Shown here: positions 1 to 1,086 of the stretch, one piece after another
Position numbering within the stretch: the stretch's first letter is position 1
Layout of the letters: every line of letters begins with the position of its first letter
From: Escherichia coli
Lineage (GTDB): Bacteria; Pseudomonadota; Gammaproteobacteria; Enterobacterales; Enterobacteriaceae
Assembly: GCF_003334815.1 (NCBI RefSeq)
Contig: NZ_QOWO01000107.1
DNA: 1,086 nt
Reading direction: 5' to 3' (one strand)
Notes under the pieces: model-generated
Database searches by the model: none
What the model saw: the letters and a program-made list of their open reading frames with translations, nothing else
Told to the model about the DNA's origin: nothing
Made by a program: the position numbers and the translations under genes

Positions 1-68
1 TTCGCCAGGAACGACCGGAACGCGGCATCATGCGGCGTGGGCGTTGTGGTGTTTTTCTTCTTACTCAC
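1..68 (-). CDS. Rpn/YhgA-like PD-(D/E)XK recombination-promoting nuclease / putative transposase; N-terminal 22 codons only, the gene runs off the left edge of the window
   Basis: Minus-strand reading from GTG at 68..66 gives VSKKKNTTTPTPHDAAFRSFLA. The TPHDxxF(K/R)xFL motif is the conserved N-terminal signature I recognise from E. coli Rpn proteins (e.g. RpnA ...TPHDAVFKQFL...). GGAGG lies at 77..73, 4 nt upstream of the GTG. An in-frame stop at 86..84 makes this GTG the first possible start. The start overlaps the upstream stop as GTGA. Only 22 residues are visible, so the family call rests on a short motif. Confidence 0.6.
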   Translation of the reverse strand, partial: MSKKKNTTTPTPHDAAFRSFLA

Positions 69-77
69 GGTTCCTCC
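8..77 (-). repeat. Downstream copy of the same repeat; this is the apparently functional RBS, GTG and 5' coding end of the Rpn-like gene
   Basis: This is the partner of 520..589 (see that feature). It retains the intact TPHDAAFRSFL motif. The repeat may extend left beyond the window, since similarity is lost only in the last ~7 nt visible. Confidence 0.7.
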
Positions 78-454
78 ATCAAATCAGCAGCATCGCAGCA
101 ATCATCGTCCAAATCCCCACAACCAAGAGGACAGCAATTGCGATCAAAGCCGTGACAACAATAGCCACGTTCTGCGTCACGGCGTATTTCTTCTGCAATC
201 TCTTCAGCGGAAAGGTAATCAAACTCCTCACGGGCCAGTTCCAGGACCAGCAGATGTTGTTCTGTCGGCAATGTAGACACAAAATTATCAATAGCAGCAC
301 TCAAACGTCGCTGATATAGCTCATAAACAAGACCACAACGGTGCATTAGTTCTTCGGATAATAGTTCCAGTTTTGAGCGAACGCTGTCAGCATTGAAAGT
401 GACTTCATCAGATGACATCTGAAAATCTTTGTCAGTGTCAAAACAAGACTTCAT
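65..454 (-). CDS. Hypothetical small acidic protein, 129 aa, with a helical-looking body and a Cys-rich acidic C-terminal tail; no family recognised
   Basis: This is the lower part of the 65..676 ORF in the supplied track. ATG at 454..452 is preceded by AGGAG (465..461) with a 6-nt spacer. The product is MKSCFDTDKDFQMSSDEV...GYCCHGFDRNCCPLGCGDLDDDCCDAADLMEEP. By hand count it has about 31 D/E versus 12 K/R. The stop TGA at 67..65 overlaps the GTG of the downstream Rpn-like gene. An alternative in-frame start is GTG 580..578 with AGGAGG at 590..585, giving 171 aa. The track's GTG at 676 has no SD and overlaps the upstream gene by 32 nt, so it is disfavoured. Confidence 0.65.
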   Translation of the reverse strand: MKSCFDTDKDFQMSSDEVTFNADSVRSKLELLSEELMHRCGLVYELYQRRLSAAIDNFVSTLPTEQHLLVLELAREEFDYLSAEEIAEEIRRDAERGYCCHGFDRNCCPLGCGDLDDDCCDAADLMEEP

Positions 455-519: not shown

Positions 520-589
520 GGAACAGGAGGAATCCGGTACCATGCGACATAGACGTCATGATGTTTTTCATCTTGCTCACGGTTCCTCC
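520..589 (-). repeat. Upstream, degenerate copy of the rpn-like translation-initiation region and first ~20 codons (relic 5' gene end)
   Basis: There is an ungapped alignment to 8..77 at a constant offset of 512 nt. It matches 53/70 positions by hand count. It includes an identical 14-mer CTCACGGTTCCTCC (576..589 = 64..77) and 25/27 identity over 563..589 vs 51..77. The encoded peptide VSKMKNIMTSMSHGTGFLLF compares with VSKKKNTTTPTPHDAAFRSF, so the conserved PHD has become SHG. Confidence 0.7.
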
Positions 590-610
590 TGGTAAAGTAC
601 CTGAACATAT

Positions 611-644: not shown

Positions 645-911
645 TCAGTGGCAGACCCGTTCAATTTCAAGCGCACGGAGCAGGTGCCCCCACTCGCTGA
701 CTTTCATGGCGGGGATACGCACCCGCTTCCGCTCACTGCAGCGTCTGGCGATATGACCGCCCATCGCCAGGACGTCCGGGTTAATCTCATCCGGTGCCAG
801 TTCCTGGCGTCTGAAGCGGGTATGGCGGTGCAGGGGTTTGTTCTCCCGCAGGCACTCTTCACGCAGACGCTTTACATATTCAGCCGTTGCAAAGATAATT
901 GATGGTCTCAT
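645..911 (-). CDS. Hypothetical small basic protein, 88 aa, Arg-rich; possible nucleic-acid-binding or regulatory protein, family not recognised
   Basis: This is the lower part of the 645..1007 ORF in the track. ATG at 911..909 is preceded by GGAG (923..920) with an 8-nt spacer. The product is MRPSIIFATAEYVKRLREECLRENKPLHRHTRFRRQELAPDEINPDVLAMGGHIARRCSERKRVRIPAMKVSEWGHLLRALEIERVCH. By hand count it has 19 R/K, 5 H and 12 D/E. An alternative start is ATG 1007..1005, which overlaps the upstream stop as ATGA and gives 120 aa. That version has no SD, and its extra 32 codons lie over two strong stem-loops. Confidence 0.6.
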   Translation of the reverse strand: MRPSIIFATAEYVKRLREECLRENKPLHRHTRFRRQELAPDEINPDVLAMGGHIARRCSERKRVRIPAMKVSEWGHLLRALEIERVCH

Positions 912-971: not shown

Positions 972-1004
972 GAGAAAGGCAGGGTTTATCGCCCTGCTTT
1001 TTTT
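972..1004. terminator. Intrinsic-terminator-like hairpin with A/T tracts on both sides (potentially bidirectional)
   Basis: The stem GCAGGG (979..984) pairs with CCCTGC (992..997) around a 7-nt loop. On the plus strand it is followed by T7 (998..1004), a textbook terminator. On the minus strand it is preceded by A7 and followed by CTTTCTCT, a weaker U-tract. It sits immediately after the upstream gene's stop codon. Confidence 0.5.
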
Positions 1005-1086
1005 CATTCCGGACAGCGACGCAGTGCCAGCGCGAGCGCTTTCATCTTCCAGCCTTCCGGCGTGCGGTACATCACCTTCCAGTAGC
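1004..1086 (-). CDS. C-terminal end of an upstream gene of unknown function (partial, enters from the right edge of the window)
   Basis: The minus-strand frame starting at 1084 reads YWKVMYRTPEGWKMKALALALRRCPE and stops at TGA 1006..1004. Its codons are mostly enterobacterial-preferred (ctg, gcg, ccg, gaa, cgc). The competing open frame contains cta, agg and gga. A hairpin follows 7 nt after the stop. Only 26 codons are visible. Confidence 0.45.
   Translation of the reverse strand, partial: YWKVMYRTPEGWKMKALALALRRCPE

Follow-up and report, generated by a model that had tools for sequence, protein, structure and literature searches.

The cysteine-rich C-terminus encoded in the analysed stretch of Escherichia coli DNA (1,086 nt, referred to as the window) is probably a structural Cys3His zinc knuckle that caps the acidic four-helix establishment protein CcgAII, and not a redox switch for the neighbouring Rpn nuclease. 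An earlier sequence-only reading of the window had described this C-terminus as three vicinal cysteine doublets, CC-x6-CC-x3-C-x6-CC plus one His. This pattern is confirmed by translation of 454..68; the doublets, however, turned out not to be the conserved part of the protein.

The ccgAII gene and its product

Residues 98-129, YCCHGFDRNCCPLGCGDLDDDCCDAADLMEEP, form the C-terminal end of a 129-aa ORF translated from the minus strand (454..68), and the Cys and His positions of this region are C99, C100, H101, C107, C108, C112, C119 and C120. The sequence-only reading had located the tail properly, although the interval it assigned to residues 98-129 (68-166) spans G97-P129 and is one residue longer. 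The relevant features of the window are the following:

1..68, minus strand: 5' end of ygdB, the gene of an Rpn (YhgA-like) nuclease, RefSeq WP_000038345.1; PF04754 was matched on the equivalent gene
8..77, no strand assigned: downstream, functional copy of a direct repeat, with the rpn Shine-Dalgarno sequence, start and first ~20 codons
65..454, minus strand: ccgAII-type gene, 129 codons (454..68) and stop TGA (67..65), RefSeq CDS WP_001317525.1
68..115, minus strand: acidic tail D114-P129, DLDDDCCDAADLMEEP, predicted to be disordered (pLDDT about 60)
73..77, minus strand: rpn Shine-Dalgarno sequence GGAGG, within ccgAII codons M126-E128
95..100, minus strand: third doublet, C119-C120, within the 9-nt quasi-repeat TGCTGCGAT/GCTGCTGAT (CCD/AAD), of which the first unit encodes it
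116..166, minus strand: knuckle G97-G113, G-x-C99-x-H101-G-x4-(C107)-C108-P-x-G-C112-G, with the putative Cys3His site C99, H101, C108, C112
134..136, minus strand: C107, first Cys of doublet 2, partly conserved and replaceable
155..157, minus strand: C100, second Cys of doublet 1, not conserved
520..589, no strand assigned: upstream, decayed copy of the direct repeat (76% identity), left edge of the ccgAII insertion
645..911, minus strand: ygdA (88 aa), the upstream neighbour in the ardA-ygcA-ygdA string
1004..1086, minus strand: 3' end of ygcA, whose 145-aa protein extends beyond the window

An AGGAG lies 6 nt upstream of the ccgAII ATG at 454. A longer ORF of 171 or 203 aa starting from an upstream GTG was considered and rejected, because the IncI1 allele carries a 14-nt indel in that region and because the region is a decayed rpn leader. 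Within the ygdA-ccgAII spacer no convincing promoter or hairpin was found (promoter/terminator scan; ssDNA fold z -1.16), and the RNA scan yielded no match in Rfam. The upstream neighbour ygdA had no matches in Pfam, NCBIfam, PHROG or PADLOC.

The gene product is acidic and helical, as had been proposed: it contains 31 D+E versus 12 K+R (pI 4.23), and the AlphaFold model (overall pLDDT 87.2) shows four helices within residues 22-95. Proteins named CcgAII from E. coli, Salmonella, Klebsiella, Lonsdalea and Proteus were among its phmmer matches (E 7.5e-45 to 1.4e-27), and on the basis of this significant, full-length sequence similarity the window protein is assigned to the CcgAII family. The family name, CUP-controlled gene AII, derives from IncN plasmids. 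According to a profile search, the family comprises at least 432 clusters at 50% identity; its median pI is 4.5.

Scans of the window protein against Pfam, NCBIfam and PHROGs gave nothing significant, a consistent Pfam domain was absent among 79 family members and 10 long fusion proteins, and no fold match was obtained in PDB and BFVD; no structural or sequence relative of CcgAII with known function was found. PADLOC reported a weak match to PRTase_III-A (E 6e-5, helical core against the N-terminus of the model), which occurred in 5 of the 79 members and was absent from the long CcgAII-domain proteins. Some GenBank records label the ccgAII ORF as a CbiX cobaltochelatase, a label that we rejected since no CbiX match was present in Pfam/NCBIfam. 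The labels 'antirestriction' and 'prevention of RecA overproduction' that the literature attaches to ccgAII are annotation statements for which no underlying data were found. In one protein entry (P0002) the ORF continues beyond the usual stop of ccgAII.

Conservation of the Cys3His knuckle

Across the family, 141 of 144 representatives carry C-x-H-x6-C-x3-C (C99, H101, C108 and C112) with exactly this spacing. Column counts over 150 representatives gave 146/146 for C99, 145/146 for H101, 146/146 for C108 and 145/145 for C112 among the residues present, and G97, G102, P109 and G111 were nearly invariant as well. Of the three spacing exceptions, P0197 carries a His to Cys ligand swap (C-x-C for C-x-H); the C-terminal sequences of the remaining two diverge ahead of the knuckle, which they therefore lack. 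C100 is a Cys in only 13 of 141 representatives (9%; by column, S 54 and C 16 of 150), Ser being the commonest family residue at this position. C107 is a Cys in 99 of 141 (70%) and is otherwise replaced by T (16), Y (10), H (6), W (3) and others. A CC in the tail was seen in a single other representative among the 141, P0119. The sequence-only reading had looked to invariance of all seven tail cysteines as its test; in the alignment of homologues only C99, C108 and C112, together with H101, are invariant. Judged from these counts, the cysteine cluster is a non-chance feature, and selection has maintained C-x-H-x6-C-x3-C, not three doublets as a unit. C107 reads as a frequent but dispensable neighbour and C100 as incidental.

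The putative ligands C99, H101, C108 and C112 most likely hold one structural Zn(II). Similar to structural zinc knuckles and treble-clef-like Cys3His sites, CcgAII has four invariant putative ligands within 14 residues. In the AlphaFold model the C-x-H is placed on a beta-hairpin and the C-x3-C on the following turn, surrounded by the near-invariant Gly and Pro residues (residues 91-110, pLDDT 89-92; beta-bridge 98/104, then a short turn). A swap of ligand type, as in P0197, is apparently tolerated, and the non-ligand positions C100 and C107 vary. The CcgAII spacing differs from that of the CCHC knuckle (C-x2-C-x4-H-x4-C), the zinc ribbon and the ZAS motif (H-x3-C-x2-C). The lack of a match to ZAS or the classical zinc ribbon had already been pointed out from the letters and was reproduced here, as neither an H-x3-C-x2-C nor an anti-sigma Pfam match is present. 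To our knowledge, C-x-H-x6-C-x3-C matches no known classical motif. The earlier idea of a metal or redox cluster can therefore be kept in part: a metal site is plausible in view of the invariant Cys3His set, its fixed spacing and the His to Cys swap, but the seven cysteines do not act together.

Occupation of the same four residues by a redox-active [2Fe-2S] cluster with mitoNEET/CDGSH-like ligands, which would make CcgAII an Fe-S protein, appears unlikely. CDGSH proteins use three Cys and one His, and Cys3His sets can hold [2Fe-2S]; the ligand composition is thus shared, and many CcgAII proteins have a further Cys, C107, beside C108. However, direct reading showed that the motif C-x-C-x2-(S/T)-x3-P-x-C-D-G-(S/A/T)-H is absent, neither the query nor the 79 members gave a match to zf-CDGSH or another Fe-S Pfam family, and the model shows helices and a small knuckle in place of a NEET beta-cap. 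The ligand swap in P0197 is compatible with zinc or Fe-S.

It is highly improbable that CcgAII binds soft metals (As/Hg/Cu) via vicinal Cys pairs in the way of the ArsD metallochaperone. ArsD is a cytoplasmic protein of ~120-130 aa with three vicinal CC pairs, which CcgAII, at ~130 aa and with three CC doublets, superficially resembles, and the CCPLGC of the knuckle is reminiscent of the biarsenical-binding tag CCPGCC. Yet within the CcgAII family the cysteine pairs are not maintained as pairs, the model is helical instead of thioredoxin-like, and no ars, mer or cop genes are present in the neighbourhood. A structural zinc site remains the preferred reading of the knuckle.

Insertion of ccgAII into the 5' end of rpn

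ccgAII is located on an insertion of ~512 nt in the 5' end of rpn, flanked by a 70-nt direct repeat. The upstream copy occupies the position of the rpn start in IncI plasmids that lack ccgAII, and the distance from the ygdA stop to the GTG of this copy, 65 nt, is identical in the empty-site plasmids L031-L033. In the ccgAII-less IncI plasmids rpn directly follows ygdA with the same Shine-Dalgarno sequence and start, and an identical GGAGGAACCGTG precedes rpn. Within the window the rpn GTG (68..66) overlaps the ccgAII TGA (67..65) as GTGA, and the last three ccgAII codons (EEP*) fall within the duplicated rpn leader. The sequence-only reading had rightly recognised the rpn Shine-Dalgarno sequence in the final codons of the tail and had offered the overlap as a sign that the tail contacts the nuclease. 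The overlap is accounted for by the insertion of ccgAII just upstream of the Shine-Dalgarno sequence, and no support for a contact between tail and Rpn was found. In the same way, tail and rpn occur together because the tail arose at the insertion junction.

Tail residues from about 118 on are specific to the IncI-complex lineage, and DNA homology to the IncN ccgAII ends at codon ~117. The third doublet, C119-C120, was present in every tail-bearing allele recovered, all of them from a closely related IncI-complex lineage. It is unchanged across the tail alleles seen, with variation at residues nearby (D116G, D117N, D121N), so that some selection on the doublet may be considered, although the alleles are all closely related. 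Tail-bearing alleles are at least 90% identical; they differ at 18 codons over the whole gene and at one in the tail, and a dN/dS test of the tail was set aside because the alleles are too similar. In the family as a whole, the median length beyond C112 is 5 residues; in 60 of 141 representatives this tail is 7 residues or longer, and over its first 20 residues it is on average 38% acidic and 3% basic. A disordered acidic tail is regarded as a recurrent feature of the CcgAII family.

We consider it distinctly unlikely that DDCCDAADLMEEP, the tail specific to this lineage, was acquired secondarily as a peptide that contacts Rpn or RpnS. Acidic disordered tails are frequent mediators of protein contacts, tail and rpn strictly co-occur in the loci seen, and the CC is invariant among tail alleles whose neighbouring residues vary. 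However, the origin of the tail at the junction, as indicated by EEP* in the duplicated leader and by the CCD/AAD quasi-repeat, fully explains the co-occurrence, the high identity of the alleles gives the invariance little weight, and the tail is predicted to be disordered.

CcgAII is independent of Rpn. The sequence-only reading had suggested that the tail is a switch that releases the coupled nuclease: the seven cysteines would sense oxidation or metal, upon which CcgAII, in the manner of an antitoxin or regulator, would release or activate the translationally coupled Rpn. Both the GTGA overlap and the Shine-Dalgarno sequence within the tail are real, rpn is located immediately downstream in every tail-bearing allele examined (L001, L002, L005, L029, L030), and the trigger that frees RpnL from RpnS has been called an open question (PMC10400941). 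Nevertheless, such a switch is very unlikely. Only four of the eight Cys/His positions are conserved, and the 25 fetched loci with tail-less family members, some of them short contigs, had no rpn nearby. Among complete-genome E. coli records this rpn was found in 1464 and ccgAII in 448, and ccgAII is absent from about 70% of the E. coli replicons with this rpn; co-occurrence is hence not obligate. In addition, the empty-site plasmids retain the rpn Shine-Dalgarno sequence and start.

Rpn further displays RpnS-type antitoxin hallmarks of its own. Four-residue EGRM repeats set in 13 residues downstream of M244. Beyond rpn, a 73-aa ORF encodes a stand-alone homologue of the Rpn C-terminal domain, matching Rpn residues 244-306. 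RpnS is defined as the C-terminal domain of Rpn (Zhong et al., 2023; PMC10400941), and in the plasmid RpnP2 system RpnS alone neutralises RpnL (PMC10400941). In this locus the RpnS role fits both the 73-aa ORF and the internal product at M244. A tblastn search with Rpn matched only rpn and the downstream 73-aa ORF, never ccgAII. CcgAII shares with RpnS and RpnSs that it is a small helical protein encoded beside an rpnL gene, but it has no similarity to Rpn and displays neither the DUF4351 C-terminal-domain homology nor the four-residue repeat helix.

Leading-region context and proposed role of CcgAII

Conjugative plasmids and ICEs carry the CcgAII genes in their leading or establishment regions. 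In the IncI locus L001 the order is ssb-parB-psiB-psiA-ardA-ygcA-ygdA-ccgAII-rpn on one strand, oriented toward the nikA/relaxase side. The IncN ccgAII adjoins ardA and ccgAI, and other members adjoin genes for SSB, RadC, KlcA-type antirestriction proteins, DUF4942, helicase, Toprim and T4CP/relaxase. Among the matching plasmids in PLSDB, 1149 of 1226 are conjugative. A 2025 study, in which ccgAII is not named, assigned the ardA string to a class 2 ssDNA promoter (PMC12672017). The IncI ccgAII is located in the ardA string.

The window protein and the IncN CcgAII (pKM101/R46/N3) are 47-77% identical over the four-helix core and the knuckle, and both genes belong to the leading region near ardA. 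The window protein differs by 12 additional N-terminal residues and by a C-terminal extension of 10-13 residues with the third CC. In IncN, ccgAII is preceded by ccgAI and bounded by a terminator, with no rpn, whereas the window gene lies between ygdA and rpn with the GTGA overlap. CcgAII resembles the leading-region proteins ArdA, KlcA/ArdB and PsiB in being small and acidic (pI 4.2) and in its occurrence on conjugative elements of many types, and the IncI ccgAII shares string and orientation with ardA, psiB and ssb. However, there is no sequence or fold similarity between CcgAII and these proteins.

We therefore propose the following explanation. CcgAII is a strongly acidic protein of ~100 residues with four predicted helices, encoded in the leading, first-transferred region of conjugative plasmids and ICEs, and one structural Zn(II) at C99/H101/C108/C112 would pin a short hairpin-plus-turn onto the helical bundle. 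In the IncI complex the ccgAII cassette was inserted into the 5' end of a resident rpn with a duplication of ~70 bp. The ccgAII frame now crosses 24 nt of simple sequence, enters the duplicated rpn leader and ends at the TGA of GTGA, and the longer IncI-complex tail with its third CC is due to this insertion. Synthesis of CcgAII would presumably begin early in the recipient, along with that of ArdA. From the genomic context we infer that CcgAII binds a host or plasmid protein and may serve as an establishment or anti-defence factor, not as a regulator of Rpn.

A broader proposal is more tentative, and we regard it as possible but rather doubtful. According to this, CcgAII would found a large, uncurated family of metal-dependent early-conjugation effectors, in which knuckle and acidic tail would form the surface that neutralises a host defence or repair protein, and the CC extension of the IncI lineage may add a second, redox-sensitive function linked to Rpn. 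As a weak lead, the recurring similarity of the helical core to the PADLOC model of the retron type III-A PRTase would fit a decoy.

The locus shows cleanly how a gene cassette entered the 5' end of another gene: 70 bp were duplicated, and a new C-terminal peptide along with a stop/start overlap was produced. The tempting link from CcgAII to the adjacent Rpn toxin, for which an antitoxin of its own is present, turns out to be wrong and can be dropped. Whether a resistance plasmid becomes established in a new host is decided by leading-region genes, the majority of which are uncharacterised. For CcgAII, a widespread orphan family, four putative ligand residues, a likely cofactor and natural pairs of plasmids with and without ccgAII are now defined.

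Genomic context and the CcgAII family

In E. coli plasmids of the IncI complex (I1/B/O/K/Z), e.g., pE2863-1, the leading region matches the window at 100% identity; all genes of the window are located on the minus strand.

Genes in the window
1086..1004, minus: 3' end of ygcA
911..645, minus: ygdA
454..68 (stop 67..65), minus: ccgAII, 129 codons
68..1, minus: first 22 codons of rpn (ygdB), an Rpn (YhgA-like, PF04754) nuclease gene

The gene order of the wider locus is ssb-parB-psiB-psiA-...-ardA-ygcA-ygdA-ccgAII-rpn-(73-aa ORF)-...-nikA/relaxase. From ssb to the relaxase side, the genes share one orientation toward the oriT side, the one that genes transcribed early from the transferred strand should have (PMC11541004, PMC12672017). 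In IncI plasmids, ardA is regularly accompanied by two conserved, uncharacterised genes, ygcA (145 aa) and ygdA (88 aa, basic, ending in one Cys-His); ygdA had no match in Pfam, NCBIfam, PHROGs or PADLOC.

The ATG at 454 was chosen as the ccgAII start because a conserved AGGAG/GGAG lies 6 nt upstream and a 14-nt indel at the upstream GTG occurs in the IncI1 allele; the longer ORF (171-203 aa) from that GTG is not credible. The product is acidic (31 D+E, 12 K+R, pI 4.23) and predicted by AlphaFold to form four helices (22-37/40, 44-59, 64-77, 83-95), with a short hairpin and a turn after the last one. It belongs to no family in Pfam, NCBIfam or PHROG; homology to proteins named CcgAII, the 'CUP-controlled gene' product of the IncN plasmids pKM101/R46/N3, is clear (E down to 1e-45). 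The same ORF has already been named ccgAII on the near-identical EHEC plasmid pO26-CRL125, where the adjacent 'transposase' was remarked upon (PMC3817090). In some GenBank records it carries the label 'cobalamin biosynthesis protein CbiX' (e.g., CP057399.1, CP104418.1), which looks like a propagated misannotation; no CbiX domain was detectable. One CbiX-labelled entry, P0002, continues beyond the usual stop. The defining features of ZAS, CDGSH, ArsD, CbiX and RpnS proteins were also looked for in CcgAII and are absent.

A profile search against 1.84 billion representatives recovered 432 clusters at E <=1e-3 and 292 at <=1e-10. The carriers are conjugative plasmids of many types, which account for 1149 of the 1226 PLSDB matches, and ICE-like chromosomal regions, with neighbours including ArdA, KlcA-type antirestriction, SSB, RadC, DUF4942, ParA, DEAD helicase, Toprim and T4CP/TrwC relaxase genes. 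In Achromobacter and Bordetella chromosomes (loci L013 and L015 3998-4486), the gene for a 162-aa CcgAII-domain protein shares 4 nt with the end of the gene for a 656-aa DEAD/ResIII helicase, and a Toprim protein is encoded nearby; here, in an ICE-like setting, CcgAII is coupled to another partner. The window gene is a member of a named but uncharacterised family and encodes a small protein with a probable metal knuckle; no description of the breadth of this orphan leading-region family was found in the searchable literature.

The C-terminal Cys/His site

Translation returned residues 98-129 as YCCHGFDRNCCPLGCGDLDDDCCDAADLMEEP, in agreement with the sequence-only reading. Aligned residues were counted per position in 150 representatives, 146 of which cover the knuckle region.

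Conservation of C-terminal positions
C99: Cys in 146/146
H101: His in 145/146
C108: Cys in 146/146
C112: Cys in 145/145
G97, G102, P109, G111: near-invariant
C107: Cys in ~70%; otherwise T, Y, H, W and others
C100: Cys in ~10%; most often Ser
119/120: mostly gaps

C100, C107 and the third doublet, C119-C120, are thus not invariant, and family members without C107 have no compensating Cys. A regular expression for the exact spacing C-x-H-x6-C-x3-C matched 141 of 144 representatives. Among the three exceptions, two diverge ahead of the knuckle and lack it; the third, P0197, reads C-x-C-x6-C-x3-C, and its exchange of His for Cys is what one would expect of a metal ligand. In the AlphaFold model built from a deeper alignment, the knuckle region (91-110) reached a pLDDT of 92 and 89, with a beta-bridge 98/104 and then a short turn; residues 111-129 reached only 64 and 59. 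The invariant tetrad, its fixed spacing and the confident model thus identify a compact Cys3His site, in which the hairpin and the turn after it contribute two ligands each, as the selected feature. To our reading it is a structural zinc knuckle, zinc being suggested by the ligand set and the compactness. The main alternative, a [2Fe-2S] cluster on the same Cys3His set, is not favoured because both the CDGSH motif and the corresponding fold are absent. The earlier proposal of metal chemistry in the tail is plausible, though for four of the eight Cys/His residues (C99, H101, C108, C112). No description of the C-x-H-x6-C-x3-C site was found in the searchable literature.

Four rare ccgAII variants (P0008, P0025, P0038, P0041) leave the normal frame for the -1 frame after C99/C100, and their C-terminus is a hydrophobic sequence, ...VVGIWAMIAAMLLI, which corresponds to the minus-strand ORF 79..300 of the window. 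They lose the knuckle and probably represent either null alleles or errors that shifted the frame.

Origin of the tail and of the ccgAII-rpn junction

Family members typically end 2-6 residues past C112 (median 5). Longer tails, with 38% acidic and 3% basic residues among their first 20, occur in 60 of 141 representatives, and the acidic tail is thus a recurrent feature of the family that is probably disordered. Cysteines in it are rare (5/141), and only one other representative, P0119 (...PDCCEEEH), has a tail CC. DNA homology to IncN ccgAII ends at codon ~117; past this point the IncN gene has a stop and a terminator hairpin, whereas the window gene reads on through TGCTGCGAT GCTGCTGAT TTGATG and then GGAGGAACCGTGA. 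This tail DNA (window 79-105, minus; 24 nt) contains a 9-nt quasi-repeat, TGCTGCGAT|GCTGCTGAT, encoding CCD|AAD, which suggests that the third Cys doublet arose by slippage or duplication. The pattern of three doublets is largely a lineage-specific accident.

The ccgAII cassette is flanked by a 70-nt direct repeat (window 8-77 and 520-589, 76% identity). The downstream copy provides the working rpn SD, GTG and first ~20 codons; the upstream copy, 65 nt past the ygdA stop, is decayed and lies exactly where rpn starts in ccgAII-less IncI1 and IncI-gamma/K plasmids (L031-L033), which have the order ardA-ygcA-ygdA-rpn-small ORF with rpn intact. Therefore, ccgAII and its leader (~512 nt) are an insertion into the rpn 5' end accompanied by a duplication of ~70 bp, which by far exceeds the target duplications that transposons make. 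The repeat starts at GGAGGAACC and includes the ccgAII end GAG GAA CCG TGA (EEP*), so that the last three ccgAII codons and the stop are rpn leader read in another frame. The insertion junction also accounts for the GGAGG in codons 126-128, within the last six ccgAII codons, and for the overlap of the ccgAII stop with the rpn start (GTGA). In minus-strand RNA/ssDNA, the SD-like AGGAGGAA of the decayed leader (window 520-600) can pair with downstream TTCCTCCTG, forming the hairpin of the ssDNA fold; for the spacer as a whole, the folding energy is unremarkable (z -1.16).

Relation to Rpn and a possible role of CcgAII

The sequence-only reading had further suggested that the tail could be a switch controlling release of the Rpn nuclease, an idea that the locus comparison leaves unsupported. 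No Rpn homologue was found in any of the 25 fetched loci encoding a tail-less family member, some of them short contigs, and among the fetched loci only IncI-type ones have one beside ccgAII. Across 5,426 complete genomes of E. coli, a 727-nt segment of rpn was present in 1464 records (with >=95% identity in 1415 of them) and ccgAII in 448; PLSDB gave the same imbalance (Rpn at >=90% in 1564 records, CcgAII at >=80% in 516). In addition, Rpn of the window locus has the hallmarks of the RpnL/RpnS toxin-antitoxin systems of Zhong et al. (2023, PMC10400941), who found that RpnS alone neutralised a plasmid RpnL: a four-residue repeat, EGRM, starts 13 residues past an internal Met, M244 (MTIAERLEQKG...), and is present in three copies, and a stand-alone 73-aa ORF downstream of rpn (L001, the IncI-complex locus, 6921-7142, beyond the window) is homologous to Rpn residues 244-306. 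This ORF, annotated 'hypothetical protein', is a putative RpnSs-type antitoxin. The evidence says that CcgAII is not a controller of Rpn, at least not obligately, and the tail-less loci without Rpn, the imbalance and Rpn's own hallmarks together make history the best explanation for the co-occurrence of tail and rpn. A contact with Rpn acquired secondarily by the tail would fit the tail CC, which is the same in every tail allele although D116G, D117N and D121N occur; this invariance carries little weight, however, as the alleles differ at just 18 codons, of which 8 are synonymous and 10 non-synonymous and only one lies in the tail.

The analysis shows an invariant Cys3His motif, a confident knuckle model, a low-confidence acidic tail, a leading-region context in many conjugative elements, an insertion origin of the IncI tail and independence from Rpn. 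In the most likely mechanism, Zn(II) would staple the C-terminal knuckle onto the four-helix bundle, and the protein would be made early in the recipient, within the ardA string. Being small and acidic, without DNA-binding character, CcgAII may act by binding a host (or plasmid) protein, by analogy with a zinc-knuckle-capped adaptor; its role would then be in establishment or anti-defence. A weak lead comes from PADLOC, where residues 30-93, in the helical core, match the N-terminal part of the PRTase model for retron type III-A (E 6.2e-5). Of 79 family members, 5 give this match (best 1.3e-6), but long CcgAII-domain fusion proteins do not.

The ccgAII-rpn junction represents a tidy case of tail creation through cassette insertion, and the C-x-H-x6-C-x3-C site provides a precise, testable handle on a widespread, putative plasmid-establishment protein.
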